Of a stretch of 64,000 bases of DNA, positions 25,835 through 59,888 are shown in pieces. Made by a program: the position numbers and the translations under genes. Numbering within the stretch: the first letter of the stretch is position 1; each line of letters opens with the position of its first letter. Below the pieces are notes generated by a model. The model searched no databases and was not told the origin of the DNA. It saw only the letters and a program-made list of their open reading frames with translations. Origin of the DNA: Bilabrum cf. latius (taxonomy: Eukaryota); NCBI GenBank assembly GCA_965178125.1, contig OZ237760.1:124001-188000 (forward strand), given 5' to 3'.

Positions 25835-26384
25835 ATCGGTTAGAAACAAGAGCGTAAAATACTGAAGTTTCCCTTACCGCTCGCGCATTTTCCCATTTGT
25901 GTGATTTTCGACATTTATACACGTTACATTCAGTCGTGGGGTAGGATCCGGAGTCTAAATGCGGTGTTGCGACCAACAGACTCCGAGAATCCAGCGACTT
26001 CGCTTCTAGGTTTATTCGACAGCCTTTCGCGACCACCGCGCGTTAGCGCGCCAGACCACAAGTTTAGCCAGTAATTATTGTCCCTGTCTACCAGTGTTGG
26101 CATTTGTCAAGCAGCGTGCCTGCAGCCAGCTGCCTCGCACTTGCTGATCACAACTGACGCGAACTGCGCTAGCTCGCCAGGGTCGACTGCAACCACCTGT
26201 AATCTTTGCCATAGACTCTGCTCAATATGAGTTTAGAATCGTATGATAGGCCTTATGACGGTAAGAAGATGCAGCTTTTTGGCGACATCCCGCGATACAC
26301 TTGCGCTGCGCAACGGCCGTACTCTACAAGAAGATTTACGCCTAGGTTTGTCACCCGATCGCAGAGCCAGGCACGCATAGTGAC
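25835..26384. promoter_or_regulatory. Probable bidirectional promoter region (GDH / giant cyclase)
   Basis: A ~550 bp lower-GC gap between divergent start codons. Confidence 0.4.
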
Positions 26385-29300
26385 ATGACAGGAAATCAAA
26401 CGACCGAGTTCTCATCCTCGGGGCGCTGGACAACTGCGACCGCGAATACCAGGTCTCGGGCAGCGTCGGTTGCACCAGAGCTGCCGCTTCGCCAGGCCGA
26501 TACGAGTTCGTTCGGCGCAGAATCCAACAACGGAGAACTAAATGCGTCCGTTCCGAAGCAGCGAGCGATTGAGCCAGTCGATCCCGTTGAGGGAGCGGAA
26601 GGGCCGCTCCCCACAATTTGGGATGAGTACATCGGTAGTTAGCGTTCTCTGCAGGCTCGCTCAGCGAGGTGCGTAATAATCTTTTCGATGCTAATTGTTG
26701 GTATATTCTTGGTTGTGCCGGCCAGAACCGGCCATCTCATAGGTCTTTGGTCCGAGGAGGTCAGGTCGCAAGCCGGCACCATACCCCTCGAAGGGGCTGG
26801 CTATCTGCCTGATTAGTCCAGTGCCCCTACCGCAGCTCACGGCGTAACATCGACAGGCAGTAGCTTGCAGGAGGCGGGAGGCTAGGCGTATCAGATAGGT
26901 GCCACTGTTTTGCTGTCTGTGCTCAGCTTGCTAGTGCTGCTGGCCACCTGCGTGCGGCCCCTCCGGTCCAGCCTCAGCTGCGTGGTGGGGTTCTGCATGG
27001 CCATCAGCGTGCTTATCCTTGTGATCGGCACCACGCTAGATGGCATACTGCCCGGTAGAGGTTCCAGGCTTGTGGAGCTCCGCGGCTCGGTGGTTCAGAT
27101 GCCCGGGGATCTCTTCGTGCGACTGCCCTCTGTGGACGCCTTGTCCATCCTGGTGCTGCTGCTGGGTATCAACGTGGCGAGGACGGCCATCAGCAACCGA
27201 ACATATTCTGTGCTCGGCACCGGCCTGGCCGTGGGTGCCTTCCTGGTCCTGGTGCTCCTCCGGCTCACGCTGGGTCCCAGCGACTGGCTCCAGGGCCCGA
27301 GGGGGACCGGCTGGGGGGATGATGCCGACAACTACACGGCGGTGCTGCTGCGGGATGGTACGGGGCTGCAGGCCGCATTCGCAGGGAACACATCTCTTCC
27401 CTCGCCGCTCACGGAGGAAGCCCTGGATCGGCTGGCTGACCTCGCGCAGGGGCTGGCCCAGGGAACAGTGACCACCCGAGAATACGAGGACGCGGCGGGG
27501 GCACTTGCAGAGGCCGTGGATGCGCGGGCCGTGGCTCTTGCTTCGAGCGACGAGTTCCTGGCCTCTAGGGGTGTGGTGCGGGGCGGGCTGTGGAGGGAGT
27601 GGTACGTTGTGCTGGTGGCGGTGCTGCTGGTGGCATCGATGCTGTCCGTGGCTCAGATTGAGTACGCCGCGTAGAGGCAGACCTGGCGCGATTTCGTGCA
27701 GAGGAAGAGGCTGCAGCTCGAGGCGATCCGGGCGGAAGAGCTGCTGACCCTGGCCATGCCCAGGCAGATCGCGCACAGGCTGATGGAAGGGGGCGACCTC
27801 ACCAAGAAATTCAACTCGGTGTCCATAGGGTTCATCTACGTGGCAGGATACAAAGAGATGACGTACCAGTACAGGAATGACCTCATCACGTTCGTTGACG
27901 CGCTGCACGCACTCTACTGCCAGCTCGACGCACTGGTGTTGTCCCACGACGGGGTGTATAAGATCGAGTCGGTGCAAAACTGTTACCTGGTTGCTGCTGG
28001 GGTGCCCACGGTAAATGAGGATCACGCGGCGCAGCTGCTGCAGTTCCTGCTGGCGGCGCAAGAGCTGGTGCGAGAGACTAGGATCATCAGCAAGCAGGAG
28101 GAGGAGATGGCTCTCGTCATGGATGGCGACTTCGAGGGCGACGGGGAAGATCAGGGGGGGCAAACGAATCAGGAAGAGGCCGGGTAGATGGGTGGTAAGA
28201 AAGTAGACAATGGAAGTAGCTTGGGCAGAGGTACCAATGAACCGAATACGGCAGATAGAAGGTAGGGCTAGCAGTCAGCAGACGGCGCCGCAGATGGTGT
28301 GATGCTGGGGCTCCCGCCTGCAGCGATCCGGATCGGGAACGAGCGCAGCAGCGGCGGATCAGGCGACGTGCCAGTCGGGATGCTGCAGCGGCCTACAGAC
28401 CAGTTCGCACCTCCGTCGCCGCAGGTGCAGTCCCAGCCAAAGTCGCAGGCCAACAGCGCCAGCCCGGCTCGCAGCCGAGCGAGCAGCAGGGGCCGCCGCA
28501 CCTCCGACTAGAGCGAATACAGCGCGATCGTGCAGGCGGTCAACACCGACGGACAGGGGAAACAACGAGCAGGTGGCGCGTCGGCAGAGAGCAGCCCGGC
28601 TCTGAGTTGGACCCAGCCTGGGGTGCTAGGGGGCGGCGGGCCATGGCCGGGACCCAATGTGCCTCCCAAGCTGCCTGTGAGCGGGTTGGGTTGGAGCAGA
28701 GCGGCGGCGAGGACCGATGCGGGGTCTGGCCGTGGCATGGTTCGAATTGGGTCCAGTGGGCGGGCCTCCACGGCCTCGAGCGCCTCCACATCGGGCAGCC
28801 GGACGGGGTTCGTCGCGCCATCGTGGCATTTCAAGATCGGCATGCACTCGGGGCCTGTGACCGCTGGCGTGGTGGGTTCGCAGCGAACCTTCTTTCGGCT
28901 TGTGGGCGACACTGTGAACGTGTCCTCCCGCATGGGCTCCACGGGCCAGACAGGCCGGATCCACATCAGCCGACAGGCCTACAGGAGACTCGGCAGGCCC
29001 CCCGTGCTCAACTCCACGGTGGGCCGCGCGAGAGCGGCGCTCGCAGAGATGAGCGACGGCGAGGACGGGCCCGGGGGAGACGGGGCCGTCAGCGACAGCA
29101 GCGAGGAGGAGGTGATGAGGCAGCGCAGCAGGGGCGCACTCGGAAAGGGCGTGTCGAAGGTGTCGCCGTACAGCAGCTCAGGAGGCCGCTCGGGCAGCAC
29201 AGGTCAGCGTTTCTTTGACGACGAGGAGGATAACGAGGACGTGCCCCCGGAGGCCCGGGGCGACTCCTCCTTTGTGTTCCTCAGCGGCGACCTCGAGGGC

Positions 29301-32300
29301 GAATTGGGGCCCGAGGCAGGCAGAGAGGACACGGAGGGCAGCGGTGGCTCGGCGACATCGTCTGCTGCCTCGAGCACATCCAGCGCCGTCGATGCCAAGA
29401 GAAGAAGGAACAGGCTCCGTCTGGTGCCCGCCCAGACGCACCCGGTCGTTGCTGCGCACAGACTCAAAACGTTCAGGCTTTGGCGGCAGCTGCGCGACCG
29501 CAGGAAGGCCGAGAAGGACAGGGTCAAGGGGATCAAGAAGCGCGCCCAGCACGCCAGGAAGGCGCTTCTGGAGTCGCACCGCATGCGCCAGGAGCACGAA
29601 ATGGAGCGCAGCATCGCGCAGATCGGGCAGCTCAACACGCAGACGTCCTACGCCACGCCCAAGTCGGACCCCGTGGCCCCCGCACTCGAGGCGTTTCGAA
29701 TGAGCCAGAGCACTGGACCGAGCGGATCCTATGGTGCGGGTGGCAGCAGCAGCGGCGGAGCGGCGAGCGGGCGCGGCAGTGCGCCAATGCCGCGGGAGCT
29801 GCCGGCGCCGATCATCAGGAAGGGCGGCGTGCCCGGCACCCCAGACTCGATCCGGGGCCGCAGGAGCGGGGGCGGGGGCGGGGTGTCTCCAGGCGCGGGT
29901 CTCGTGCTGCACACCGGCCGCACCATGACAAGGACTGGCATCGACGGTCACGCCGAGCCTGACCCCGAAGCCATCGATGCCCCTAATGTGCCAGACGGGT
30001 ATCCCGGTGACGCTCTGGACGACGCTCTCGATTCCATCAACACAATGGAGGTGCTCGGCGTTGGAGACGATGAGCCCGATGAGTTCTTCGACGAGGAGGG
30101 CTGGTACGTGCCCGACGAGGAAGAGAGGCAGATGCTGGACACCCTGCTGACTGTGTACACAGTGGAGAAGCGCGGCCGTATTCCTGTCAAAGGCAAAGGA
30201 ATGATGAAGACGTATTTCATTGACGTGCCACCTGCTCTTGCCGAGGGCCCAATGGAAGACGAGGAGGATGACAACCAGGTGAATGTAGGCAGAAACGAGC
30301 ACTCTGCGAGCGATAGCAGCGGCAACGATCTCAGCCAGGTTGGTCAGCAGGTGGCTGTGTTCTCCGAGCGCTCAGACGACATGGCCCACCGGTGGGAGGA
30401 AGCACAAGAAGCAGCTGCGGTCGCCGCGCAGCTCGGACCGTCGTCGCATTCGAGCGCCTCCAACTCCCAGCTGGAGCCGGAGCGCGTGGTTGAGGTGCAC
30501 ACGGGAAACATGAGCCAGGCGCTCATACACGGCGCCTCGGCAGCTCACAGCGCAGGTCCAGCTCTCCCCACGGAGCAGGGCTCTGCAGCGGGACACCACA
30601 GTCTTACGCAGACCGGGTCGGCGCACTCAGCGGCTATGTACGGCGCGAGCCGGGGCCAGGCACAGAGGGGAGGCCACGAGGATGAACTGCCCCATGCAGC
30701 TGCCGTGCTTCTCGAGCAGCAGCACAGCGCGACGGGGAGCAAGACCAGCCGGGCGGGGGAACCTGCGCACGGAGGTGCGCTGCCGGCCGACGCTAGCGAT
30801 GAATGCCAAGTCGTTGGTTATGACCGGATGGAGCACCCATCCGTGAATGACGCGGATTTGTCCGGTCTGCATAAAGTCATGTCGGTGAACGATTCGTTCC
30901 TGGTGAGGTATGAGCCAGGCAGCCAGGGCAAGCCAGTCGCCGTGTCCCGCCTAGTTCAGCAGCATCAGTAGCAGCAGCACGAACAAGACCAGTCTGAGGG
31001 CCACTTGTCGTCCTTCAGCGACGCGCAGGCCGTTGATGACGTGCATGGAGACGGGGACGTTGGGGTGGAGAACTACGATCAGAAGCCGGACAGCGGTCAA
31101 TTGGTCAGTCGGCCGGGACGGTCCTCCAAGGCACGCTGGGGAGCGCCGAGCCGGGGCGACGGTGGACTCGAGATGCAATGCGCGGCCAGCGGCGTGACCG
31201 AGGATTCCTTCCTTGTGCAGGGCAGCTTGGGCACGGGCCACGGGTCCATTATGGGAGAGGAGTCCGGCAGCAAGCTAGAACGAATGGGGTCGGAGCCTGG
31301 CATGATGATCGGAGGGGGCAGCGGCCGGAGCGATAGCCAGAGCCAGAGCCAGAGCCAGAGCCAGAACCCCGCCCGAGCAGGCCAGGCCTTCATTTCAACG
31401 AGGCGCGGTCGCGGGGAGGATGGTCGTACACCGGACCACCACGGTGGGCGAGCCGGCGAGGATACCCCGTCCACACCGAGGCGTAGCTCGTAGGAACCGC
31501 ACGTGACCCCAGTGCTGGGGTCAGAGCGCACACCGCCACACTCAGGGCGGAGTGGTGACGCGACGGACCGCCACGTGTCGCAGCGGACGAGCGAAACCTC
31601 CCATGCGAACCACGCAGGGATGCACCTGCCGCCGCCCGCCAGCATGTCGGAGCCCAGTGAGTCAACCGAGATGCCCAGCGGTAGTGGCAGGTCGTCTTCG
31701 GGCGCCGTTCCGGGCCCCGGCTCCACCGTGGATGGCCGCAATTCGTCGTCAATGACCGCCAGCGGTACGGGCAGCGTACATCCGAGGTCGACGGGATCCA
31801 GTGGCCAGCCATCCGGCGCTTCCATTCGAGTGAGCGGAGCTGCCCGGCAAAGCCCAGGCGGGTCCAGCGGCGGCAGGCGGGGGCGGCCCATTTCCCTAGA
31901 TGCGCAAGCAACGAGCAGTCCACGCGACACGCCAAAGTACACTAGTCCTCGCTTCCAGTTGAGCGCAGACCAGGCCGATGGGGATGATGCAAGAAGTGGA
32001 AATGCCGGTGCTGGTGGCAAGGAGCTAAATACCAAGCCAGGCAAGGATGAAGGGAGGGCAGATACAGGCCAGCAGGGCAAGGTACTGCAGCACCGGCCCA
32101 GCACAGAGTTTACTGGCATGTCTCCTGCCGGCATGTCCGCCAGACCTTTCAGCGACGCGTCCACCAACAGAGACGCCAGGTAGCAGGCGCACGAGGTACG
32201 ACCGTTCGACGCCCGGCTCATGGGCAGCGGCATGACGCACGAGACGGGGCACTCGTCACAGGTAACGCAGGGCAACGTGGCCGATCGCATCGTGCAGGAG

Positions 32301-35300
32301 GCCAAAGCCCTGCAGAAGCGCAGGGGCACGGTTGGCTCGCAAACGCTCGATGCCTCCATGGATGACAGCCCTTCGAGGAGCAGCTCCAGTCATGACCCCA
32401 GCTAGCCATCTACGGGCCACGGCGGGCATGCGCGGGCCCAGGTTCGCCTCGAATACGGCAGTAGGGGATCTTCGTCCGACATGACTGGGTCTGGCACCCA
32501 CACAACGGGCAACACCGGGTCCACCAACCACACGGGTAATACCCCAGAGCTGAAGCAAGGCGCGCAGAGCGAGTCTGGGTCGGTTTTACACTAGCAAAAT
32601 GGACAAGTGAGGAGGCAGGGAGCGGGTGCAGTACCGAGTGGCCTGCCGCCAATCCCGGGAGCGTCTCCGCTCCCCGATGGCATGCCGTCCGGCAGGCTCC
32701 ATCGCGGGCGGGAGAACTCTCCGGGGAGCAACAGCGAGATGGTGCCGGCCATTGGAAGGATGCTCAGCGACGGCGGCTTCTCATCTGCTACCGGTGAGGC
32801 GTCAAAGGAAGCGATGGCCCGGCGCGACATCACGGAGCAGCCCACGAGCTCCACCGCTGCCTCTGCCGAGGTGGAGCACGCGCACCATGGGCAGCAAAAA
32901 CAGGGAGACGGAGTAGGCGCCAGCGCTTCGAATCGGCGACAGAAGCCAGGCCGTTCCCCTAGCAGAGGCGGCAGGCCCACCATCAAGCTGCCCCCAGTAG
33001 GAGGGGCCACGACTAGTCCGGGGGGGGCCCACGACGACGGTGCCCCCATCCCAATGCCTGCAGCGGACTCCGGTCACGGCTCCCCGTCCAACATGCGGCC
33101 GGGGCCCTCCACTCGGCATGGCGTGACCATGCTCCCGGCGCAGCCCAGGTCCTTTTAGATCAGCCCAGAGCGAAACTCAGCGCAAGACGAGTCGCAGTCA
33201 TAGCAGCAGCGTGGAAGCGATGGACGCTCGAGCAGCCCTCATGACTCCCCCATCGCTGGGGAGGGCTTGTCCAGCGTCACCCGGGCAGCTGCGGAGGAGT
33301 GGAAGCGCAAGGACAGAAGGAAATCGGTGGACGTTGCGCAGGACGGCAGCAGCACCACCCAAGGACCCGGAGCCGCAATTGCACACCCTCCTAAATCTCC
33401 TGCGGTACGCAGGTCCCGGTCCAGTTTCAACCTCGGGGAGCCGGGGATGGCCCTGGAGGGAGGGTCAGGGTCCGCGAGTAGCGGGCCGGAGGTCGGACCG
33501 GTAACAGGCCAGACAGGTCATGTTTACGGGGCCTCAGCGCCTGCCACGCCTAGGAGCGCTGCGGGTGGGAGGAGATCCAGCACGGGGTCTCGCCGCAAGC
33601 ACTCCCTCACTCGTCACACCGGTGGGTCTGCCACATTTTACGGCGGCAGGCCCGGGCCCCCGCGATCTCCGCTGGGTGTCGGGTAGCAGGAGGACCAGCT
33701 GGGCGAGGCAGCAATGCAGTACGCCCAGCAGCTGCTACACATGGACAAGATGCTTCGCTCACCGGAAGACAAGCGAAGCACCGCGGAGAAGTTCAGAGCA
33801 GCCGCTAGATCCGTGGGACTCGGCGCGATCGAGGCCTAGAAGGCCCAGGCCCAAGCGCGAGACACCGACGGAGAGCCATCCTCCTCGCCAACTGCCAAGG
33901 GGCGCACTAACCACGTCGAGGCTGGGTCCAATGAATCCAATGGCAGCGCCGCCACGCCAGATGGGGCAACATCACTGCTGGCGTCTAAGTCGTTCGGAGG
34001 AGGGGGCGGGCCGCACGGCACGGGCAGGCCACGACTACCGAGACAGCCGGTGTCCCCCAAGACCGGCAGGAGGGGACTTCGGCGATCGAGCACGCATGCC
34101 GCAGGGTCTCGTGGAGTGAACATGGGTGCCTATTCCGGCAGGGTGGGCGCTGGAACCACGGGCCATGCCGGTGCTGGCGGTGGCCTTATCCGGCCCGCGT
34201 CCAAGGAATCCATGACGACAACGGGAGCGAGGGCGCCGAGGGGGATGGGCAGGGCCCGCCAGAGCTTTATCTTAAGGGCAGGACAGTCCTTTTACGGCGG
34301 TAGCAGCACCCCCGGTGCTGGTGGTCCTGGTGCTGGCAGGGGCTTGCAATCTCCGGGCCTGAATAAAGGCGGTGGGCAGTAGCCAGTGGGATTCGGCATG
34401 ACCATCCAGGCCCTAGTTCGGTCAAGCAGGCAGAAAGCGAGGGGTCGCCGGTCGAGCATGCAGGGAGGGTACTAGGGACTGGCAGGTGACCAGACCGAGT
34501 TCCTGAAGATGGTGGAGGACGCGCAAAACCGCACAGCAGCCACTCCGGCGGGCGGAGCTGTCGGCGGTTTGGGCGCCACCCGGTCATTCCGTCGGAATCC
34601 CAGCCATCCCGAAGGCCTCACTGGTGGGAAGCCGCCGTCCCCGCGCTCTGCCATGCGCGGGATGGACTTTAGTGGCACGCCGATCGCCAGCAGCACGAGG
34701 GCCAGGTCCCGCAGCACGGGCCGGGATCTGCGTGCAGCCAGCAGGGATGCCGCACGGCTGTCGCCGGGCAGTACAAGCGGAGAAGGGGGCGAGTCATCGC
34801 AGCCAAAGGGCACCAGACGAGGCAGCGTCGGTGCTGTTCCGACGAGCATTCGTCGTGTGACCAGTGGATCTCACTTCCGGGCTTCACCAGAGTCGTCACA
34901 CGACGCGTCGAACGTGTCCAGCTCCACCCCGACGAGCGGCAGGCGCCGGGGGCGGGCAGGGAGCCGAAGCCGCAGCCGAAAGCTGAGGAGCCTTCGCTCC
35001 AAGGAGATGCTGGGCGATGGAGGCAGTGGGATGGACAGCTAGATGACGACCTTTGACGGGGCCGTGTTTAGGGTGGCGGGAAACTATTAGTCGAATGAGG
35101 GCGCTCTCGGTGTTCCAAGTTTAGACCCGATGCGGCGTGCTCCAGGCAATGCCCAGCACGTGAGGCCACACCAGTCAGCTGGCCAGCGGCCGAATGGGGC
35201 TCAATGGCAGCGTCGCTCCAGCGATGGAGGCGTGGTTCACCTGATGGCGCACCTTTAGAAGGCGCACGACCGGCTAAGCCAAGAGGCGCAGCAGGCAGAG

Positions 35301-38300
35301 CTGAGGGAGAGAGCGATCTAGCTTGCCGAGCGAAGGGCAGCGGGGGCCGCAGGGGCTGTCCCTTCCGACGATGAAGGGGGTGAAATCGGACGGCGGCCGT
35401 CTTACAAGAGCAAGCGTCCGAAGCATATTCGCGCAGATCAAGGCGACATGGCTGTGGTGGCTGCTCTGAGCGGTGGTTCCGAACAGGGCGGGACCGAGTC
35501 CGCGCACAGGAGCGCTGGAGGTGCTGCCTCCCTGGCAGCAGACAGGTCACCTGCGAGGCTTCAGCTGAGACAGGGCCGGCAACCGAAGGGGGCAATCAGG
35601 AGCACGAACAGAAGCCAGACGAATTCAAACAGCTGGTCGCACGATTCATCGGCCCTGGCAGGATCCAGCGACATGGGTGCAGGGGTCGGCGGGATTCTGG
35701 CCCCGCACAACCACCCTCCGTCCATGCTCCACCCCCGCCCAGTGGTGATGCAGCCCTCTCAGGAGGTAGACGCGCACGGTCAGGTGCATGCAGATGAGGG
35801 AGCAATCATCTCAGTCGAGCCAAATTCTTTCAAGAACCCGACTCGGCAGCGAGGTGGCGGGCCGGGCGCAAGGCACCGGGGCGCGCTCTCCCGCGGAGGC
35901 ACTCACATGCACAGCGTCTACGACGAGCAGGACGCAGAGTCCGAGGCACAGCTCGACAAGAGGATCGAGCGGAGGCGGGTGGCCGCCAGCGCTGGTCCGG
36001 TCGTGCAGGACATGGGCGAGGTCGTGGAGGAAGAGACCGTGGGTAGGTTCTTCCTTGCCCAGATGCTCGCGCAAACTGCCGCGAAGCTGCTCCGCGTACC
36101 TGCCAGCGAGGCTGTGTATGAGTACAAGCAGATGAGCGACCACGTGTCGTGGAGGTGCAGCGGGCACTTCATCCGAAAGATCGAGGCCTTCTACCTGAGG
36201 AAGTACCTGCTGGCCATCGACGGCAATAGCGCCACGGACTAGAAGAGGATTACCAATGGCACCGAGACTGGGTACGAAGGTGTCTCTTGCTGGGCCGTGC
36301 CCTTCATATGCCTTGCGAGGGCTGTATCCTCCTGCTGGCGAGGCACCCGTTCGTTGCTGGGATGCGGGGCAAACAACGACGGGATGCGGGCGGTGGGGCC
36401 TGCTACACGTGCACCGTCCCCCAGGCGCTCGCCCAGGAGAAAGGCCACGCTGCCTCGTGATGGTGGCGTTCGCAGGGGGGTGAGCCGAAGGGGGATACTG
36501 GGCAAGCAATCGAGCAGCCGAAGGGGCATCGGCAGGAGCCAGAAACGCCGATCGGATCACGGATCGGGTGGCAAGCAGCCGGCGCTGGATGGACGTGGCA
36601 ATGGGCGAGAAGGCACAGCGAAGTCCGGCCAAAAAGGGGGGCTTGCAAGCCGAGGATAGAAGGAAGGGGACATGCAGCTCCTATCGCCGGGTCGCGGCAG
36701 GCAGGATCGCTCTTCACACCAGGCAGGCAGGCCTAAGGTCTCGTCCGGATGGCAGTCCCACGGCGAACATGCACGCAACAGCTCCTCGTCTTCTTCGTCA
36801 AGAGGACAGCACGATGTGCGCGATGCAGCCAAGAGTGAGTCCAGGCGCGGGAAGGCTCCCATAGACTCCAAGGAGCGCCGCCAGCGAGGCGCCGGGAATT
36901 CCTCTGATGCTGCCATCGGTTTCCGACAGCGAGTCATCAGCAGCATGGATGGCAGTGAGAGCGCAAGCGTCCAGTAGGCGCACAAGAGGGCGGGGCGGGC
37001 TGGCCCCGCCGGGCTGTCTTCTCCCACCTCCAGTGGTTCGGCGGGGCGGGCGCTGGTGCTGACTGGGCAAGGGCACAGCACCCGCACTGCGACCTCGACC
37101 GGCTCGGACCAGGACACGGGTCCCGGGCAGCCATCCGTGGATGCCACCGCGCGACGAGGCAATGCGAGGACAAACGGAACGGTCGTCACACCAGGACCGA
37201 TAGACTCCTCTATGCAGTCCGCAGGCAGCAGCGCCATGCGTGCCAACGACAACGCCGTCGCTGGCCTCTTTGCCGGCGTGCCAGGCCTCTCGCCTACGGG
37301 CTCGCCCGCACCCGCGCCGGCCCAGCCCACCGGGCAAGCGCCTGTCGTGGGATCAGGGGCCTCTGGGTCACGTCTCAGCACTCGAGACAGCCCGCCTGCG
37401 GGGCAGAGGCAACCACAAGGCCGAAAAAAGGCCGGACGACTGTCCATCGATGTGGATGGACCTATCGGTAGTACCGCGGGGCACAGCACGGTACCTGGTC
37501 TGGCAATCGGCGTGCCCACGTCGACACGATCTGAAACGGGGCTGGCGCCAAGGGCCATCGGGGCGTTGGAGGCGAAGCAGGGCCGTGCACCTTTAGCCTA
37601 GACAAAGGAGAAAGACAGCAGCGTGAGCATGCGTGACCTGAAGCAGGCCAGGTCAAGCAGGAAGGAGAGGAGGACTCGCCGCAGGACCCGGCCGGGTGAT
37701 CCAGCCAAGCGCACGGCAAGCGGCGGTATCGCCGTGGAGCCCACCATAGCGGGGTCGCGCGGGTCGCCGGAAGCCAGCGGGCCAGGCGCATCGTCAGGCA
37801 GTGCCTTGGATTCTGCAGCCAAGACGACCAGCTCCTCCGGCGGTTTATCTGCAGATGGGCATGCACCCGAAACAGTGGGTACTCTATTCTCTGCGGCGGG
37901 CTCGAAGGACGGCACGGCTAGCCGAGGGCCCGCTGGATCCACCGCGACAAAGTCCAAGGACTCTTTGATTCACGTATCAAAGGAATCGTTCCCTGCAGGC
38001 GCGGGTTCCAAGGACTCGCTGGGCACTGGGGGTACCACCCAGTCCTCAGGTGATGGATCCAAAGACTCTTTTCTGAAAGGATCCAAGGACACTCTTGGTA
38101 GCGAGGGTGGGCAGATGCAGGGCGCAGCAGCGTCGGGTGGGCGGTTTTCGCGCAGCAGGGAGCAGCACCAGTACGGCCAGAGCTCAAGCGTTGCCTCTTC
38201 ATCACAAGGGGGGGAGGCGCACTCCTCCATCGGCGGGTCGGGGCCCATCTCTGGAAGCATCATGTCCACAGTGCCACGGTCAAGCTTGCAATCCAGCTAC

Positions 38301-41300
38301 CCTGGAGCCTCTAACCGCCATCTCTTGACGGAAGGTTCTGTCGAGCCGGCCAGATTGCCTGTGTACAGCGATCAATCGGTGCCCAGCCCGCCGCCGAGGC
38401 CCGGTCGCGGCAGCGGAGCCTCTCCCCGGCGCCGCGCACCAACGCTGGGCAGGCAGTATTCGGACAACCACCTTAGGGCAAGTCAGCGGCGGCTGCAAGG
38501 CTCCCAGAGGTTTCGGCCCATGGTAGAATCGATCCCAGAGGAACCTTCCTCGGGCAAATCGTTCAAGGTTCACAGCGGATCCAAGGGTGCTGCGCATACT
38601 AGCAGGTCGCAATCGGGCAGGGTAGCAGGTAGCTCCATTGTGCCACTTGCAGGCAGCAGTGGAGGCGGGCAGCCAGTGCGTCGAGCCACGGAGGGTTCCT
38701 CGGGACGATTGGGCAGCGCCCACGACTCGCTGGAGCTCGGTCCGGACCCGGCGTCGCAGGCACACGGCAGTGGCGGTGCAAGCGGTGCGACTGGTCGATA
38801 GGCGCACCGGAAGCAGTACCGTCACGGTCGCAGGCATCAGCATCAGCGATTCGGACTCGCGGCCCCTGTCGCAGCAGCAGCCCGGGCCCAGCTGGCGGAA
38901 AAGAGGCAGCGCCTCGTTGGGGCGCTAGCCAAGGGAAGTCACAGGGGGGACCGCGGGCTGGGTGGGGGGCACTCACGGCGGCTGTCATCCGGCTCGATGC
39001 ACAAGAGCAGGTCCGGGATCATCCACAGGAGGAAGAGGGCGTCGGCTCAGGACGTTGGGTCGGCTGGGCTCGGTGGGAGCGGCTCAAAGCAGTCCGATCA
39101 GTTCGCCGGAGGCCACCGTCTGGCGACCGGTCGGCGCATGCCATTCCGTGTGACGAGTTCGACGAACGTGAAGGCGGGGTCGCACGGACGGACTCGGCTA
39201 GGCAGCGCCAACTCGGCCACACTGGCTGCGGTAGGGTCGGTGGACTCGTCCGGAGGCGCTGGCGCGCATACCTTGCACCGCCCTGCAGGAGGCAGCGGGC
39301 TCTTGACTCGTGTTCGCAGTGGCGGGAGCGGTGGTGGAGCCGGGGCCTCTGACAGGGTTGCTATCCGTGGTGCCGGTGGGCAGCAGCTGTACTTTTAGAG
39401 GAATCGCGGGGGCAGCGACGGAGACCGCCTGTCTAGATCAGGGGACGGCAAGGCAGTGCCTGTGGCTGGGCTGGAAGATGAGGACGAGTACTACGACACG
39501 GGGACGGGAGCAGGTGCTGCGAGCGCGACAGGTCGGAGGGGATCGGTTGCATTTGAGCTTCGTCGGCAGCAGCGAGAGATTCTGCAGCAGCAGCAGCAGC
39601 ACCGGGGTCAGGCAGCCGGTAATGTGCTCAACGCTCCCGCGCGGGTACGCAGCACCAGCGCCCCGGTGGACCCGAAGCCCATGCTCCGAGACAGACCAAG
39701 CGCTCAGACCCGCACCACGAGGCAGGTTGCGCCCCATGCAAGTCCCCCAAGAGGACCGCGGGGTGCGCTGCCCACCATCCCAGACACCACGGAGACGAGT
39801 CTGCCAGGCGAGCGCACCAACACGCACGCCGGCTCCAACGGGAGCTCGTCCTCTCAGGCTGCAGAGACTGTGTCCGCGGTCAAGACGGAGTCTGTCTCGC
39901 GGGCGGGCACGGCAACGGACACCACAGGCAGCTCAAGCGGGGGTCCCTCGGGGACGAGAACCACCAACAATTCATCTTCGAGAGGGCGGTCTGACGGCAT
40001 GCACACGCCTCCACCGCGCGGGAGGCAGGACCAGGCCCATGGCAAGCGCCCACGAGTGGTTGACGCGTAGGGAGGGGCGATAGAGATTAACCGTTTCACA
40101 TCTGATGGATCCCCCGAAGGATCCAACGGAGTGCACTCGGAATCCAGGGGCGGCAGCCAGGGCGACCCAACCGCTTCCACCACTGAAGTCGGTCGCAGCA
40201 AGGTACAAGAGGGCCCATTAGATCCCAGGGAACAATCAACCGCTCCCATCAGCGGCATGTCGCCTTCCATCAACTCCGAGCGACACACTAGGATGCATGA
40301 GGGCACAGCGGGCCCCGGCAGGTCGCCCCAAGACGCAAGCAGAGACTCATCGGCGCTGCTCGCAGGGCTGGATGCGGGCCATGAGGCATCCATGCTGTCG
40401 GCTGGGCACCAGGGGCACACACCCTCCCCCGCGCGTGGTCGGAGGCAGAGCCCTGGTAACCGATCGGGGACCGGATCGGGATCGGCCCACTATGCAAACT
40501 CGCAGCAGCCATCTGGCGCTAGCACGGTTGGACTTGGGATGGTGTCTGGCGGCGATAACCGTACCGGTACGCAGGTGACGAACACCACCGCCAACACAGG
40601 CACAACCAGTACCGGGAACACAAGCAAGACCAGCGGACACTCCACGATCGGCCCGCTTGTCACCATAGAAAGCGCCGCTAGGAAGTCGCCTGGGTCTCCG
40701 CAGAGAGCCTCGCCCGTGAGGGTGCATCCCGACGAGGACCCGGTGCAAGAGGGCGCCGCGCGCGGGGCCGAGTACCCGTCTGGCCTGCTTGTTCGGTAGC
40801 CTGTGTTGGAGCACGACATGCAACACCACTATGACGAGGATGTCGCGGACTTGCCCCCCCGGACCCCGTCTGTGTCACCGGTCAAGCCTCGTCAGGGAAC
40901 CGGCGCACTGCTGCAGGGGCCCACAGTGGTGCGCAAGGTCACTGGAAGCCTATGTCTCGACACCTGCACGCAGTCCTCGAGCTGTGACTACACGTGCTGT
41001 GGGTGCTTCGCGAGGTGCTGTCCGTGCTGTCTGCCGCCGGAGATTTTCGTGGAGAGTCACGACCCCGGGATGCTAGTGTCCTAGGGTAAGCTAGGCGCGC
41101 GTTGCCTACGGCGATGGCTAGTCTGCCTCGACCTCCGCATCTTCTGCAGCTGGTTCTGGATCTGTAACGACGTGTGCTCGGCTGGTATCCGGTCGGGCAC
41201 GTCCGCACCGGTAGAAAATGAGACCCCCGAGGAGCTGAAACGGAGGCAGGAGTTCGAAGACAACGTAGTGCTTGAAGAAGCAGAGACGCTGCAGACGTCT

Positions 41301-44300
41301 GCGTGGGTGCGTGCGTTGTGCTGCAGGCTGCAACTGCACTTTTCCGACGCGGATACGGAGCAGGTCTTCTAGATGGTGTGGCTGCAAGATGCATACGCTG
41401 GGTTTCAGAGGTTTGTTGGACTTCTGGTGGTGCTGCTGCTCGCCGAACTCATCGCCGCGCTCCCGGCAGCACGCCCCACCGAGGGCGTGGTCCTCGTGTC
41501 GATAGCCGTCGCGGCCATTGGGATTGCCGTGCTGGCTCGGTCGACGTTCCACCAGGATATTCTGCCCGAGACGAACGACGAAGTGGATGTCAGCCGGCTG
41601 CTGAGAGACGCGAGGAGGAAGCGCAAGGTGCAAGAGGCCAAGATCAGGAGCTAGCAGCGGCTGGTGGTGCTGGCTGAAGGCAGGTCAGCGGCTAGTGCGC
41701 GAATCATGCACGTTCCTTAGGACCCGCATGGCGTGCTGGCCTCCCGGTCCAAGCGTGCGAGCGATGGGCTTGGTTCGGGCGCTGGCATGGCCATGCAGCG
41801 CGCCGCAGAGTCCAAGCGCGAGATGGAGCAGCAGAGGAGAGCGAGGTCCGTGCAGATCGACACAGAAGCCAGGGCTGGGGCAAGGGATCTGTCGGACGGT
41901 GGGAGCGGTAGAGTGCCGCGATCGGATAGCACCGGCACAGGCAACCAGAGTCACGGGCTCGATGGCAAGTTTTCCATGTCAGGGAGCCACCACACGCTGT
42001 CTGTGGACGGCAGGACGACAGAAGTGGGCATGTCTAGGGGTGGATCTGGCTTCGATAGCAGGTCGATGTCAGGTAAGCTGATGGGAGCGAGATTGCGCGC
42101 GGGTACTAGCAGCCGAATGACGGACGACTCTGACGACCGCATGCGCATTCGAGGGCACGTAAACTCTCGAGGGCACGACTCGAGGGGCTAGAGGACCAAC
42201 ACATTCGGGTCAGGATACCCAGCGTCGGCCATGCCCCATCTGACTGAGGACGTGCGCTACACAACCATCGACTCCAACTCGCACATGGGCTCCCTTGGCG
42301 CTGCGAGCAGAGAGGTGGGGTCGCACGACGACGGTAGCAAGGGCTCGACCGAGTCGGGTGGTGGCAAGCCAGGCAAAGTCAGTGCGCCCAAGCCCGGCCT
42401 GCAGTCCAGGCGGAATAGGCACCAGCCGATGCTGGACATCCCAGTTGAGGTGACACCGTTCTCACCAAGCGTGCTTACCGTGTCAGAGCCTCAAACAACG
42501 TCCTCGTCCAGCGGGATTCCCGCGTCGGCCCGATCCCAGTCCAGGTCAAGAGACAGGTCCGGGCCTTCGAGCCACTCTTCGCGCTCGTTCGCACGCGTTG
42601 AGGTGGAGCAGCAGCAGCGGAAAGACTCTCGCGACAGCCGGGCCAGCGGGGCCGGAGGCACGCAGCCGCCCGGGCTGATCGAGGAGACCTTTGTCACGCG
42701 AGCTTCCGGAGCAGCACCCGGCCGTGGGCCCGACGGCGACGCCACCGCGCTCGAAGTGTCGCGTGCCAGCAGAGGGAGCAGGGGCAGTCGAAGGCGAGGC
42801 CGCGGCAGGGAGCGCAGCGGACCAGCAGAGGTGGGGACTCCAACGGGAGGTGCGGTGGCACTGGATGCGGTGCCGCGCGCACGGCGGTCCAACACGTCGC
42901 ACTCGCGCAGGGACGTGCGGGACGTCACCGCCTCCCCGTCCGCGCAGAACCGCGGCAGGCGTAGATCGAGCATTCGCAGTATGGGAAGGAGGATATCAGG
43001 TTCCGCGGTACCGGCCACCACGACTGGCGCGGGATACAACCCCTTTTCAGCCAACGCTGCGATGGAACAGGTGATCGAGGGCCAGCGGCAGCGACAGCGC
43101 GGGGCCTCTGAGGACGCTAGACGACTCGGTATGCTGACCACCAGGGGCAGGCAGGGTAGCTCCAAGCGGAGCTTCTTCGGGTCACGCACGCCGAGGGGCA
43201 GCACGGGCGGCATGCACAAGGGTTTCGACTTTTCGATGGGCTCCCGAGGCATGCACAGGGGCCAATCGGTCGCCGTGGATCGCTCCCACGAAGGCATGGA
43301 CTCGTCCTCCAACAAGAGCAGAGAGAGCTCCCCCGCCAAGACTCCCATGAAGCGCAGCCAGACTGCCGCCATCAAGCCGCAGAGCACCGGCGGCCGGCGG
43401 CGGTTCTCGCTGCACGTGAGGGCCGTCGTAGCCGCGGCCCGAATAAGCAAGCGCAGCAAGGCCCGGGTGGTGGAGAAGGTCAGCTCCCTGGGTCGGGAGC
43501 TAGGGGCCACCTCGGTGGGGACAGAGGGCGACTCTTCGGGTCCTGGCACGCGCGGCGAAAGCTCGCTCATGGACGCATCGCGGGCCTCCCGCAGGTCGGG
43601 CTCGCGTCGCGAGGGAAGCAGCGGCGGACGGGGCAGGAAGCATCGCCCCAGCCTGCGACTGGACATCAAGGGCATGCAGGGCAAGTCTCCGTACAGAGGC
43701 CGGAGACGGTCGGTGGCTGGTGTTCCAGGGGCCGTGGCGAGCCTCACGAGTGCGTCTCAGGGAAGCGGTTCGTTGCCAAGCTCGTTCATCACCAACAGCA
43801 CTACGTCTGGCGGGGCCGGTGGGCAGGCGCAGAGCAACACCCCTTTCTCTTTACCAATGCGCAGCGTCTCTGGGCATCACTCCAGCGCGCACCTGGCCGG
43901 GAGCAGTCACGGGCGGCAGGGAACAGTGGCCAGCATGATGGTGTCCGAGGCGTCCTCGAGGAGCATGGTCACGCCTAAAGGGGGGCAAGCAGTGCCCGCA
44001 GTGCCTTCCCTTGCGTCGCCACATGCGGAAGAGGCTGCTTTCCACAGGAATCCCTACGAGAACGCCATGAGCAGCACGCCGCTGCCAAAGGCATCCATGG
44101 CCTCGATCGTCGAAGAGAGTGAGCCCAGCCCGCGGCACGCCCGCGGTAGGAGCCAGAGCAGGGACAGGGACCTGTCGGGGAGCCAAGAAGACCGCGCCTC
44201 GAAGGCTACTTCTGGTGCTAACGTACCCATGACTCTGTCATCTGCGGGACATAGCAGGGGCGGCAGTATTGCAGACGGCACCCGGATTCCCCTTGCTGGC

Positions 44301-47300
44301 CACGAGAGGGGTCCGAGCGGGTCGCAGCCGTCCATCGTGGCCAGCAAGCACGAGCACTGCGGCAAGGCAGGCGGCAAAAGAGGCAAGCCTATGGGCCGCC
44401 TCAGGATACAGACGGGCAGGCGAGGCCGCCGGCACTCGCTGGGAGTCTCTGCTCCACAGTTGGTGGACATCCGCCACGCACTTCATGACAACGGCGCTGT
44501 GCGGCGCGCGCCCAAGCTCAGCATCGATGTGTCTACAGTGGCCTCGTCCGGCAAGCCAACGGTGGGTGCCATGCGAGGCAGAGGGCCGTCCGCTGAAGAC
44601 GACAACAGCACGAATGTCGGCGACCCCAGCCTCGTGTCACCGGGCCTCGATATGCCGATGCTCACGTCCGGCCTGGATGCCTCGGCTGCGTCCGCCCTGC
44701 AGAGCGGGTCACCATCATCCCCCTTGGTGGGCCAAATGGAAGTCGCATCTTCGTCCCAAAACAGCAGCCGCGTGGGCCATAGCGGACCAGTGGCATCACC
44801 AGGAACGCCGGTCCCGCTGCAAGGACAAGGTCAAGGATCCGGGCTATTCTCATTGGAGAGCTAGAAGGCGTCCCCAGAACGGATCTCCGGCGATGATTTG
44901 AGGCGAGGTAGAAGCGGCGAGGCAAGCGGGGTGCGGAGAGGATAGGGAAGCCGCGACAAGCGTCGGCCTGGCGTCCCCTCCCCCCCGCCCCGCCAGAGCG
45001 CGGCCAAACCGAGGCGGCCTGCGGGTGCCGGGCCCTCCGATGCGTCTGCCTCCGATCCAGTCGGGGCGTCTGCAGGCGGCCTCACCGACGATGGTGGTGG
45101 CGTGCAGGTGTTGCTGCGGGGCGCCTCGATCGACGATTCAGATACGGCGTCAGCAAGCAGCAGTGTTGACCCAATGCAGCGCGAGTCTAAGCACGCCCAA
45201 ATCCACCCCGCTTCGGCCCCGCTCGGGAGAGAACCAGAGGCGGACAGCAGCAGCGGCAGCGCGGATAGCGATGGGGTGCACGGCGGTACGTGGGGCGAGT
45301 CGATGCGTCACGAGCAAGCAGCAGCTCGGCCTGGCTCGCTGGTCGGTGGCAGTGGCCTCCCGCCTGCGCACAGCCATCCGAATCGACCCGCTGGTCTACC
45401 CGCCCTCTAGACTGACTTGCCGGACCATCGGCATGCGGCTGCCGGGAGTTTAGCATCGCAGGAGATCGAGCCCCGCAGGAAGCACTCGCGCCCAACGGAT
45501 ACCTGGGAAGAAATGGGGAGCTTTTTCTGGTGGGTCCTCGAGTCTGCCGTGAACGCCACTCCGTTGTGTCTCCGCACCTTCTAGGCGGCATGGGCGGTTA
45601 CCATGCTGCTACTAGTGGCACACACGGTGCTCGCTGGAATTCTTATAGCGCGCCGGATGGCTGGAGGAGCGGGTCCGCTGACCGTGGGCATGGCTGAGCG
45701 AGAGGCCGGTTCCATCTACTACGACCAGGAAGCCACGCCCGTATAGCAGGAGATGTGCTACATCCCCGCAGTGCCCCTCTTGGTGATGCTGCCGGCCTTT
45801 TCGATCTTTAGCGTGGGACTAGTGCCGCAGCTGGTGCTTCAGCTTGGAGCAGTGGGCATGTACCTGGTGGTCATGGCTGCTTCGGGGTGGCTGGACCAGG
45901 ACGTCTGCCCAACCAAGGGGGTCGCATTCGCGGTTGCCACGCTCTTGCATCCCGCCCTGCTGGTGGTGGCGTTTGCTGCAGGTCGGGAGGCCACGGCTCG
46001 CAGGGCGCTGCTGCTGCAGCTGGCCAGTCGAAGAGCCCGCAAGCAGGCCGACGGCGTGCTAGCGAAGCTGCTTCCGAAGAGTGTGAACGACCGGCTTATC
46101 CGCGGGGAGGCCGTGCCGTTCGAGTACCACGACTACAGCATGGTCATTCTTTGGGCAGATCTGGTTGGTTTCACGGCGGTCAGCAGCACCATTTCCTCGG
46201 AGAGAGCCATGGTTCTGTTGAACGAGCTGTACAGCCGCTTCGACCAGTACATCGACGAGGAGCCCACCCTCTTCAAGCTGGACACGATCGGAGATGCCTA
46301 TGTGATTGTGTCCTGGGTGGACGACGAGTCCACTCCAGAGGGGGAGGGCCAGGGTCAGGCCAAGCATGGGAGCGCCGGCGGGCCGGGAAAGAGCAAGCGA
46401 CAGTCCGTTGCGACTCCATCCGGCACGGGTGCCACAGCGCGAAGCATGTCGCAGCATGGCAATGACGCGGACAACAGCCAGCAGCAGAGGGGTTTCGGCA
46501 ATGGCGTTGCTGCAGGCCAGGGATCAGCGCGTCACGCCTCGAACGCCACAACTGCAGAGGAGGAGCAGGAGAAAGAAGAGGCGGAGCGCGCCAAGGCAGA
46601 GGCCCGGAGGAAGCGCATGGAGGAGCAGGCCCCCGTGTCGCTGGAGAGGATCCTCAGGGTGGCCTGCCGCATGCAGGAAGCCGTCGAGTTCATCTCCGCA
46701 AAGTACGACAAGAAGATCGGCATTCGGATCGGGGTGCACGCCGGTCCTGTGGCCACTGCCATCATCGGTACCCTGCGCCCGCGCCTGATGGTGTTTGGCC
46801 CCACAGTGCTGGAGAGCGAGGCGATGGAGAGCGAAGGCAGAGAGGGGCGCATTCAGGTGTCCGAGGCGGCATACAAGCTCTATCTCAGGAGGGCATTCCG
46901 CTTCAGGCAGAGGAGCACGCTGCCTGAGCCGGTGGTGCCGTTCAGCACGGAACCGGCTCCCATGTTGAAGCGAAGGCTCAAGGAGATAGTGAGAGACCAA
47001 TCGTAGGGAGTGGTAGGCCAGGAAGGTGGCGATGGCAATCCGCCCACGCCTGCCAGCACTAGCAAGCGAGGGCAGCTCAAGTGGAGCACATGGCTGCCTG
47101 AGGCATCAACCGAGGAGGAGGAGGAAGATGAGGAGAATTTTGTCCTGAAGGGACCGCGGGGTGGGGTGCCTTTCAACTTGTTCGGAGGAACAGGAGAGTA
47201 TCCAAGCATGATGGGAAGCGGAAGCGTGCTGATGTCAACCATGCGGCCGCCACCCGAGGCCACCCCAGTCACTGGTACACCCGGCTCTATCCAGCCCGAG

Positions 47301-48287
47301 TACGGCGCCCCGCCTCGCTCCATGCAGGCAACGCAGGCCTTTGCCAGCATGCACGGGACCGGCATGGCGGGGGGCTACTTGGGCGTGGCCGCAGGGGCGA
47401 CGCTGCCACCGCGGCGCGACGGCCTCGGCGCCCTCAGGTCGTACTGGCTCGACAGCGCCAGCGTGAGGCGTTCGCTGCAGATGCAGCCCGCGACAAGGCA
47501 TCGAGGGCGGACCGGCAGGAGCCGCGGCAAGAGGTAGAGCAAGAGGGGCAGGCGATCAAGCGCCGCGGGGAGTCGTCTCGACGCTGAGATGGGCAGGGTG
47601 ATGCAGAACGGCGAGGGGGCCGGCAACAACGGCACGGGGCGGTCCAACCGCATGCCCCGCCCCTCGAGCGGGGGCGAAAGTTCGGCCTCAAAGAACACGT
47701 CTGTGACAGGAATGACGAGTGCAGTCGGCGGGGCGGAGTATCATGGCTCCCTGGACGAGAGCGGGGACGTGTTTGGCCTCGGTCTCGGCGGGGTGCATCC
47801 CAGCAGCAGCAGCAGGCGTGGGGCGGGCCCCTCTGGCGAGAGTGCAGGTGCAGGTGCAGGTGCAGGCAGGGACCAAGGCGGCCCCAATGTGCTCAGTTGG
47901 GCGGATAGCGGGTCTGCGAGTCGGTCCGGGAGCGTGGTGTCGCACACGATGCAACTGGAAACCACGATCGGGCAGGGGAGAGGGGGCAGCAGCGGCAGCA
48001 GCACAGGCATGGGAATTGCGGGGTCGGGTGGTTAGCCTCGACGGAGAGTGTCCGACAACGGTGCGGTGGGTGCGGGAATGACGTACGGACGCGCAGCGCT
48101 GGCGGAGGCCGAGGCGGCGGAGAGATCAGCGGGTGGCGGGCGGCCCAGAGTACTTTAGAGCAGCAGCGGGTCCGGTCGCAGCAACAACTCTCGAGGAGGC
48201 GGTGGATCCGCCAAAGAGCTGCTGCAGCCGTACGGCCCCAGCGCGTTCGGGATGAAGCGAGGCATTTCCGTGATGCACGAAATGTGA
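26385..48287 (+). CDS. Giant membrane-bound class III nucleotidyl cyclase (M1-C1-M2-C2 pseudo-heterodimer, probably guanylyl cyclase), ~7300 aa in one frame with ~45 TAGs; TGA stop
   Basis: A chain of + strand ORFs from 26385 to 48035 shares one frame and each ends in TAG; the gaps read by hand contain no TAA/TGA. TM block ~26660-27660. C1: YKIESVQNCY (~27957), IGMHSGPVTAGVVG...GDTVNVSSRM (~28830-28935), RGRIPVKGKGMMKTYF (~30170). C2: ILWADLVGFT (~46146), DTIGDAY (~46281), IRIGVHAGP (~46722). Confidence 0.85.
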
Positions 48288-48483
48288 GTGCCCCGATCCG
48301 TTGATCAATCCATGGAATGAATCATTCTAAACGAGTCGTGTTTGGTAATGCTGGCCAATCGAGCCACCCCCGTGGATCCGGTTCCGAATCACGCTTTCCA
48401 CGTGAACAAGCACATACGTAGAGAATCCCACGCAAACTATCCAGGCAAGGAATTTTTATTTAGTTTCTTACTCCAGAAGCGAC

Positions 48484-58900: not shown

Positions 58901-59888
58901 CGGCGGGCGGGCGCACTGGGACGATGACGGCGATGAGGACGATGAGGACGATGGGGCGGCAGCTGGAGGGGGTGATGGCGATGGCGGTGGCGATGGGTTT
59001 GCCACCGTAGCCGTTCTGGCGGGCACTGGAGATCTGCTGGACCAGCGGGCGCAGCGCGTTGCACTCGACGACCCAGCTCTTGCGGACCGGGTGCAGGCAT
59101 CCACGCTTATGGGGGATGCCGGCCGAAGCGCCCGCCAGGCCCTTGTGGTTGCACATGCAGCTGATCGCATGCGGGATGAGAGCGCTGAAGTATTCCACAG
59201 CGACGAACCCAGCCCTGCCATGGCCGAGGCCATGAAGCTGACAGGGGAAGGTGAAGTGCTCGAGCGACGCGCCATGGCAGCATTCATGCGCGCGTCCGTC
59301 GAAATCAACATGCTGGCTGCATCTATGGGGGATAACCCCGCCATGCGCTCGCGGCTGCAGCGGCTCAAGGTGGAGATCGTGCTGAAACAGGCCATCCGGC
59401 ACCACCAGGAAGAATCAGAGGAAGCGGGAGAGGGAGAGGGCGATGGCAGCGATGGCAGTGACAACGATAGCCAAGCTAGCGAAGAGCCCGGTGCCAGTGG
59501 CGAGAACCAGGACGATGACCAGGACGAGTCTGCTGGTGGTGGTGATGGCAGCAGCGGAGCCGAGCGCCCGCCGGACTATCCAACCGCAGCCGAACTCGCA
59601 GGGACTGGGGATCTGCTTCACAGGCGGGTCGAGGCGATCACAGCAGTGGACCCTGAAGCCCGCCGCGTGCTTGCATTGCAGTAGATCCTCGGGTCACCGG
59701 AGAGCGTGGAGCTATTGATGCAGCGGATCGTGCTCGTCACTGCGATCAGGCAGATAGAGGAAGGCGATGGGGGAGCAAGTGGCGGCAGAGGAGGGAATGA
59801 TGGTGGCGGTGGCGGGGATACTGGTGGAGGCAACAACTCGGAGGGCAACGGCGACGATGACGGAGAGGTGCCCTGCAGGCCCTCGTAA
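52993..59888 (+). CDS. Multidomain ubiquitin-system protein: putative N-terminal Ubl, vWA, U-box and UBC (E2) domains, ~2264 aa. Exons 52993-53108 and 53210-59888; 8 TAGs; TAA stop.
   Basis: vWA MIDAS VVLCVDTS(Q)SM (~55986), with the rest of the vWA (IGLVTFS, GETAMVDAI, RIVCLSDGVDTSS) at ~57450-57950. U-box PEELRCPLTGRLFRDPV..SGQVFERQAL (~56610). UBC W...GPDDTPYQGG...FPPGYP...RHINVSI(Q)GRVCHAILDRAWSP (~58420-58850). The 101-bp GTGAGT...GCAG intron is in phase. Confidence 0.85.

Follow-up and report, generated by a model that had tools for sequence, protein, structure and literature searches.

The window analysed here is a stretch of 64,000 nucleotides (nt) of eukaryotic nuclear DNA with 64% G+C from Bilabrum cf. 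latius (GenBank assembly GCA_965178125.1, contig OZ237760.1, positions 124,001 to 188,000 of the forward strand), and our analysis focused on a giant reading frame for a membrane-bound nucleotidyl cyclase in its middle part. The genes of the window include those for Mpp10, MMS19, DGAT, Rpn3, a sugar transporter, IFT57, glutamate dehydrogenase (GDH), a pectate-lyase-like protein and a protein with U-box, VWA and E2 domains. With TAG read as a sense codon, the giant frame is open from stop to stop over 7,340 codons (26265..48287, plus strand) and represents the longest open reading frame (ORF) in the window, the runner-up having 2,239 amino acids (aa). From the first ATG at 26385 to the TGA at 48285-48287, the coding frame (26385..48287, plus strand) comprises 7,300 codons, 45 of them TAG, and encodes a protein of 759 kDa with a pI of 10.1. 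Coordinates are given as positions in the window and residue numbers follow P0001, the translated frame, in which residue 1 corresponds to position 26265 and the Met is residue 41. We consider it quite probable that the frame is one protein-coding gene of a GC-rich eukaryote that uses TAG as a sense codon, most likely for Gln, and that it encodes a twelve-helix, two-domain class III nucleotidyl cyclase.

An earlier interpretation of the letters alone (hereafter the sequence-only reading) had described a single frame with about 45 TAGs and without TAA or TGA over 7300 codons, and our codon count agrees with it: TAG occurs 46 times (45 after the ATG), TAA is absent and the only TGA is the terminal one. 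The count thus uncovered no in-frame TAA or TGA missed by manual reading, which had been named as a finding that would overturn the proposal. In the five other frames of the same span, 75 TAA and 423 TGA were found in 36,701 codons (1.36% per codon), distributed evenly at 0-10 per 200-codon window; at this off-frame rate about 100 would be expected in the giant frame, and the probability of finding none is about 1e-43. TAG, in contrast, is not depleted (46 versus 29-54 in the other frames), and the conserved blocks (7 in 1,091 aa) have the same TAG density as the remainder (38 in 6,209 aa). When the span was scored in 36 windows of 200 codons by a codon log-likelihood that had been trained on neighbouring genes (2,547 codons of their conserved parts), this frame came first in 34 windows, and an antisense frame was marginally higher in the other two. 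None of the 12 overlapping ORFs in alternative frames matched a Pfam family, and genes on the other strand were therefore rejected. Read with the standard code, the frame is divided into 47 pieces, only six of which reach at least 250 aa (the longest 890 aa), as anticipated by the claim that standard annotation would split the gene into dozens of fragments. The most that such an annotation could offer is a "C2-only cyclase" of 419 aa, and the enzyme would go unnoticed, which makes the gene a clear test case for code-aware annotation. The statement that the frame is visible only under TAG=Gln holds insofar as TAG must be sense, but was slightly too narrow, since any sense residue keeps the frame open.

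The cyclase family PF00211 was detected twice in the protein, near the N-terminus (E 1.4e-27) and near the C-terminus (4.7e-27), each time in two stretches owing to insertions; no other Pfam family was found, and the middle 2,500 aa remained unmatched. A Kyte-Doolittle scan revealed twelve hydrophobic segments in groups of six (aa 133-465), two (aa 5050-5091) and four (aa 6434-6571). These results bear out the proposal of a membrane cyclase with two catalytic domains. The proposed order of first membrane block (M1), first catalytic domain (C1), second membrane block (M2) and second catalytic domain (C2) was recovered, as was the small share of this core in the protein (1,091 of 7,300 aa, 15%); however, M2 is split into transmembrane helices TM7-8 and TM9-12 by a loop of about 1,330 aa, and both catalytic domains are interrupted. 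A point against the twelve-helix reading is that TM1-TM8 were placed by the hydropathy scan alone. For the part from TM9 to C2, which is the part covered by an AlphaFold model built from a 16-row alignment, the mean predicted local distance difference test score (pLDDT) was 76.4, and the model shows four helices, the last of which extends into a long helix, followed by a cyclase fold. The strongest of the 161 PDB matches that Foldseek returned for this model (E <= 1e-3) were soluble guanylyl cyclase (GC), Rv1625c/Cya, GC-A and AC9. In agreement with the sequence-only reading, which had not seen the P4-ATPase module of the large alveolate GCs, the Pfam scan detected no P-type ATPase family in any of the three protein segments searched, and only 92 aa precede TM1.

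A near-length search identified one giant relative, P0002, a protein of 4,254 aa that is uninterrupted in the standard code and whose source labels it "class 3 adenylate cyclase". P0002 contains each of the seven blocks conserved in the window protein, collinear and with E <= 2e-6. The size of the window protein, which had been called exceptional, is indeed extreme at 7,300 aa, although a homologue of 4,254 aa exists. Since no TAG occurs in its 4,254 codons, the organism of P0002 probably uses TAG as a stop. An exhaustive search with the TM9-C2 part gave 17,703 matches at E <= 1e-3, the best being P0003, P0004, P0002 and P0005. Among these, P0005 (1,944 aa) begins exactly at a 59-aa patch that is conserved in the linker and continues with the TM7/8 motif, which a long loop separates from TM9-12 and C2. 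The same core is present in relatives of ordinary size (P0007, P0011 and P0013; 1,129-1,187 aa), together with the C1 signature Y,E,N followed by R,N,R; the R,N,R part was seen in 15 of the 29 top matches. More distant matches comprise P4-ATPase fusions (P0021, P0049, P0050, P0092 and P0148) and receptor GCs. Because P0002 has the same block order and the relatives of about 1,150 aa have the same core, the window protein is best understood as the product of one gene inflated by insertions.

The layout of the protein, all on the plus strand, can be followed from block to block. M1 (26661..27659) consists of six Kyte-Doolittle segments (aa 133-151, 211-229, 237-255, 284-302, 316-334 and 447-465) with a TM5-TM6 loop of 110 aa. 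It is followed by the helical transducer after TM6 and the first half of C1 (27660..28082), assigned by PF00211 and by alignment to Cya/Rv1625c-type cyclases, with metal positions Tyr525 and Asn572 and base position Glu568; this half shares 52% identity with P0002. A low-complexity insertion of 247 aa (28083..28823; 8 aa in P0002 and 28 aa in P0011) separates it from the second part of C1 (28824..29012), to which the alignment assigns Arg878 as the second base position and Asn885 and Arg889 as transition-state residues. A further insertion of 367 aa (29013..30113), recognised by comparison with the homologues (77 aa in P0002, 17 aa in P0011), precedes the last C1 strands, which carry the motif ...PVKGKGMMKTYFID and were delimited as a BLASTP block against P0002 (30114..30230). 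Linker A (30231..36032) extends over 1,934 aa, is rich in Gly, Ser, Ala, Arg and Pro, matches no Pfam family and corresponds to 1,209 aa in P0002 and 72 aa in P0011. The conserved patch of 59 aa (36033..36209) is shared with P0002 (E 5e-13), the start of P0005 and P0011 (E 1e-6); its counterpart in P0005 gave no usable match in the ESM Atlas. Linker B (36210..41306) comprises 1,699 aa (935 aa in P0002) and includes, just before TM7, a Cys-rich juxtamembrane stretch (aa 4890-4975, window 40932-41189) with runs such as CC.C and CC.CC, which possibly represent putative palmitoylation sites; CC pairs occur at the matching place in P0002.

The second half of the protein starts with a pre-TM7 motif (F.D..TE..F-TAG) and the hairpin TM7-TM8 (aa 5050-5068 and 5073-5091; 41307..41549). 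The following TM8-TM9 loop (41550..45533; 1,328 aa, 590 aa in P0002) would be cytosolic according to the topology of transmembrane adenylyl cyclases. TM9-TM12 (45534..45977) are indicated by hydropathy and by the AlphaFold model (helices at model residues 18-50, 76-98, 103-123 and 134-186), and lead into the helical transducer after TM12 and the first half of C2 with Asp6632 and Asp6677 (45978..46334). An insertion of 99 aa in C2 (46335..46631; 23 aa in P0002, 7 aa in P0011) contains model residues 277-338, which have pLDDT values below 50. In the second half of C2 (46632..46937) the transition-state positions are degenerate (Leu6849 and Ala6853), and the protein ends with a low-complexity tail of 449 aa (46938..48284; 317 aa in P0002, 39 aa in P0011).

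The distance of about 3,700 aa between C1 and TM7 and the presence of C-terminal-only models of relatives in the database (P0003, P0004 and P0005) would also be compatible with two or more genes, for example M1-C1 and M2-C2 half-enzymes, that share one frame with non-coding sequence between them. We regard this as highly improbable. The roughly 6,200 non-conserved codons contain no TAA or TGA, versus about 84 expected at the off-frame rate of 1.36%, the first of the two genes would lack a stop codon, and P0002 is a single ORF of 4,254 aa with the identical block order. Moreover, neither half would be complete, as C1 is without both metal ligands and C2 without the Asn/Arg pair.

A different question is whether the single gene yields a shorter mRNA, from whose linkers one or more short introns have been spliced that are in frame and happen to contain neither TAA nor TGA. 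Three observations weigh against a fully uninterrupted gene. The genome has spliceosomal introns, as illustrated by the neighbouring GDH gene, whose canonical intron with GT-AG ends (25048-25280, G+C 0.57) spans 233 nt; many linker windows have a coding score near zero, in addition to the two windows in which the antisense frame scored slightly higher; and a low-GC patch within the C1 insertion (28155-28304, G+C 0.52) carries three TAGs within 30 codons. However, 9 of the 11 stretches of lowest G+C overlap conserved coding blocks or M1, and all seven conserved blocks share one frame. An intron in the low-GC patch was rejected, as the best splice-like pair there (28196-28323), the sole donor-acceptor pair examined, spans 128 nt, a length not divisible by 3, whose removal would shift the frame. 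Taken together, splicing from the linkers appears unlikely, and one continuous gene remains the preferred reading. The earlier remark that no intron is required is true of the frame itself, but passes over the GT-AG introns of this genome.

The introns and the TAG cluster in the low-GC patch could also be taken to mean that the code is the standard one and that the TAGs are true stops, located in introns or in a decayed pseudogene. This explanation is barely credible. If introns or decay were the cause, TGA and TAA should be no rarer than TAG, and neither is present; moreover, seven of the 45 TAGs fall in conserved blocks. Furthermore, TAG occurs in frame 95 times over 11 ORFs of the window, five on the minus strand (2-2845, 3201-8084, 8213-10081, 17094-18554 and 60922-63999) and six on the plus strand (9926-12157, 12349-14526, 19619-23473, 26265-48287, 48406-52884 and 53169-59888), including positions inside conserved helices of the sugar transporter. 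All ten ORFs that end inside the window stop at TGA (nine) or TAA (one). With TAA as a Gln codon used in the proportion of CAA to CAG (61:266), the giant frame should contain about 10.5 TAA; none was found, and therefore only TAG is reassigned. This combination, TAG within the frames of conserved genes and termination at TAA and TGA, is the pattern of NCBI table 15.

Several lines of evidence point to Gln as the residue encoded by TAG. TAG is found within poly-Gln runs, and at the TAG of the sugar transporter motif ITGG-TAG-L all seven eukaryote-type homologues have Gln. At aa 5036 of the giant protein, where the codon is TAG, both giant relatives (P0002 and P0005) have Gln, as do 6 of the 17 aligned rows, many of which are weak. 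A test of neighbour composition within five positions on either side ranked Gln first (+12; next +2, Leu -8, Ser -18, Tyr -18); when calibrated on Gln, Ser, Leu, Glu, Lys and Tyr, the test recovered the true residue in 162-197 of 200 trials. Local hydrophobicity at TAG sites resembled that at Gln sites and differed from Leu (p 0.003), Tyr and Phe. The best-supported reading of these patterns is therefore that TAG is a sense codon, best read as Gln, and that TGA and TAA terminate, in line with the original proposal of TAG=Gln, for which the context test, the eukaryote-type transporters and the poly-Gln runs provide indirect evidence.

Some observations pull in the other direction and would suit a reading in which TAG is sense but specifies another residue, such as Ser, Leu or Tyr, with the ORF unaffected. 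A narrower model of two neighbours on either side put Ser first and Gln eighth; this likelihood was not discriminating and is superseded by the calibrated test. Where the seven eukaryote-type transporters have Gln, 113 bacterial-type ones have Ile. In IFT57 (17094-18554, minus strand), the TAG at ORF residue 73 aligns with Phe in all three homologues (QFF.F motif) and is the one site that fits Gln poorly. A search for homologues of IFT57 to extend the TAG columns gave only two matches, as low-complexity words swamped the prefilter. When Rpn3, IFT57, the sugar transporter and the E2 domain were aligned to PDB entries, the residues facing TAG were T, K, A, F, V, N/L and I; little weight attaches to them, as each comes from a single column that varies. 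No tRNA gene, including one with anticodon CUA, was found in the 64 kb, and eRF1 lies outside the window. In the parts of a survey of code variants drawn on here (PMC11687900), UAG is Ser in Scotinosphaera and Leu in a rhizarian, so nuclear codes of either kind exist; the same parts report reassignment of UAG alone to Gln in Iotanema, Protocruzia tuzeti and two phyllopharyngean ciliates. Within the literature searched, of which coverage was partial, we found no case of this code in a GC-rich, non-ciliate genome. Given the context and hydrophobicity results and the poly-Gln runs, a residue other than Gln is distinctly unlikely.

The catalytic residues can be compared with those of solved cyclases. 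By alignment to these, the two metal positions of C1 are Tyr and Asn, and its base positions are Glu568, where adenylyl cyclases (ACs) have Lys, and Arg878, where ACs have Asp and GCs have Cys; C1 retains the transition-state Asn and Arg. C2 retains both metal Asp, with Leu and Ala at the Asn/Arg positions. One full catalytic set is thus distributed over two domains, and these residues mark C1 and C2 as complementary halves of a single predicted active site. The best AC9 matches were also crossed, with C2 matching the C1 domain of AC9 and the second half of C1 matching the C2 domain of AC9. We did not find the mammalian-type layout, in which the metal Asp are in C1 and Lys/Asp and Asn/Arg in C2; instead, the arrangement is the inverted one of protist GCs, where the first domain carries the base and transition-state residues and the second both metal Asp. 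Because of these inverted roles and the Glu at the base position, the nearest known kind, judged from the residues, is the protist guanylyl-cyclase type and not the mammalian transmembrane AC. The Glu568/Arg878 pair weighs against a simple assignment, as it matches neither the Lys/Asp pair of ACs nor the usual GTP-type pair (Glu with Cys, Ser or Ala), of which only the Glu is present. The identity of the predicted cyclic nucleotide product is therefore uncertain: it is probably cGMP according to the Glu, the Arg at the second position being atypical. The Glu/Arg pair defines an uncharacterised clade with cGMP, cAMP or both as candidate products.

The 6,209 aa outside the core (85% of the protein) contain 14% Gly, 14% Ser, 10% Ala and 10% Arg, as expected from the earlier description of a Ser/Gly/Arg-rich low-complexity remainder, and only 16.6% hydrophobic residues, compared with 39.8% in the core. 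An origin from repeat arrays was rejected, as the linkers are non-repetitive and only three small tandem arrays were detected. In terms of composition and position, the roughly 6,200 extra residues are predicted disordered insertions at seven sites, by which an ordinary core is enlarged about six-fold; the TM6-helix-C1 and TM12-helix-C2 junctions are free of insertions. The homologues of 1,150, 4,254 and 7,300 aa thereby chart the seven sites at which a twelve-helix cyclase tolerates insertions. The many RRxS-type motifs noted before were also recovered: 20 were observed versus 9.6+/-3.0 in local shuffles, compared with 13 versus 10.0+/-3.0 for the reversed motif SxRR, and P0002 has 18 versus 3.9+/-1.9 in shuffles. 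That RRxS is enriched independently in two homologues, whose linkers do not align with each other, suggests that basophilic kinases, for instance PKA or PKG, may phosphorylate the linkers at multiple sites. Such phosphorylation could act as feedback, which is a testable hypothesis. The enrichment in the window protein is modest (z about 3.5) and was tested solely against shuffles, which tells against giving it much weight. A role as a signalling scaffold, as originally suggested, is a possibility.

Among the neighbouring genes, GDH (23773-25206, with exon 1 at about 25281-25430, minus strand) is of the animal type (E 1e-136 to GLUD1) and none of its 477 codons is TAG; the first Met is absent from exon 1 as read, so that another exon probably lies upstream. 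Downstream, about 196 nt (48288-48483) separate the cyclase stop from the first ATG of the next ORF on the same strand, an unusually short spacer; this ORF is pectate-lyase-like and has a hydrophobic N-terminus. The ORF of 2,239 aa at 53169-59888 (plus strand) combines U-box, VWA and E2 (UQ_con) domains and ends in TAA, and the presence of an E3-like domain with an E2 domain in one chain is unusual. At 19619-23473 (plus strand), an ORF of 1,284 aa is rich in Ala, Gly, Ser and Gln, contains eight TAGs and matches no Pfam family, and the same holds for Pfam matches of the antisense ORF at 19792-22134. The ORFs of MMS19 (3201-8084), Mpp10 (2-2845) and DGAT (8213-10081), all on the minus strand, and of the sugar transporter (12349-14526, plus strand) far exceed their matched Pfam domains and carry low-complexity stretches that are acidic or rich in Ala, Gly and Ser. 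Inflation by insertions may thus be genome-wide, with the cyclase as its extreme case.

For the enzyme itself, we propose that TM6 and TM12 run on into helices whose pairing would keep C1 and C2 in contact, as is seen in solved membrane cyclases. C2 would then supply the two metal-binding Asp, and C1 the base pair Glu568/Arg878 together with the transition-state Asn885 and Arg889. A stop or frameshift anywhere upstream of C2 would cost the metal ligands, and this alone would be sufficient to keep the whole frame open. The gene represents a new and extreme member of the known twelve-helix class III cyclases, inverted and probably of the guanylyl type, and it pushes the size of nucleotidyl cyclases to 759 kDa. 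In the sections drawn on here, the authors of a study of the Toxoplasma enzyme already termed its 477 kDa bulky (PMC6592433), and no paper on giant disordered cyclases was found in the literature searched. More speculatively, the polypeptide could be both enzyme and platform, with a guanylyl-type core tethered to a disordered, RRxS-studded cytosolic chain of more than 6,000 residues that is phosphorylated by the kinases its product activates, in a GC-rich non-ciliate eukaryote with an undescribed UAG-only-to-Gln code; this combined picture is rather doubtful.

Among known systems, the GCA-type guanylyl cyclase of Dictyostelium has twelve helices, two catalytic domains and no ATPase module. As far as the source describes it, this protein resembles the window protein in having the topology of mammalian ACs without a P4-ATPase and two catalytic domains per chain; the likeness is by description only, and the window protein differs in its 7,300 aa, in the M2 split by a loop of about 1,330 aa and in the Glu/Arg pair. 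The same sections of the Toxoplasma study, whose authors noted the similar Dictyostelium protein without ATPase, describe TgATPaseP-GC as a P4-ATPase-GC of 4,367 aa and 477 kDa with an inverted arrangement, in which the Glu/Ala pair was read as GTP specificity (PMC6592433). On these descriptions, the alveolate P4-ATPase-GCs (TgATPaseP-GC, Plasmodium GC-alpha and GC-beta, and ciliate GCs) share with the window protein the inverted roles, Glu at the base position, an insertion in the first catalytic domain and a very large polypeptide. In contrast to them, the window protein lacks the P4-ATPase and has Arg instead of Ala or Ser as second base residue, its gene has GDH on the minus strand as upstream neighbour, and fusions of the alveolate type appear only among its more distant matches. 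The mammalian membrane ACs (AC9, 6r3q and 7pd4; AC5; AC8), with which the sequence-only reading had compared the protein, share the two sets of six helices, the helical transducer and the C1/C2 pseudo-heterodimer fold. The window protein differs from them in that C1 and C2 have exchanged their catalytic roles, in having Glu/Arg in place of Lys/Asp and in being about six times longer. P0002, P0007, P0011 and P0013 have the same blocks, the same order and the same C1 signature as the window protein, with far shorter insertions.

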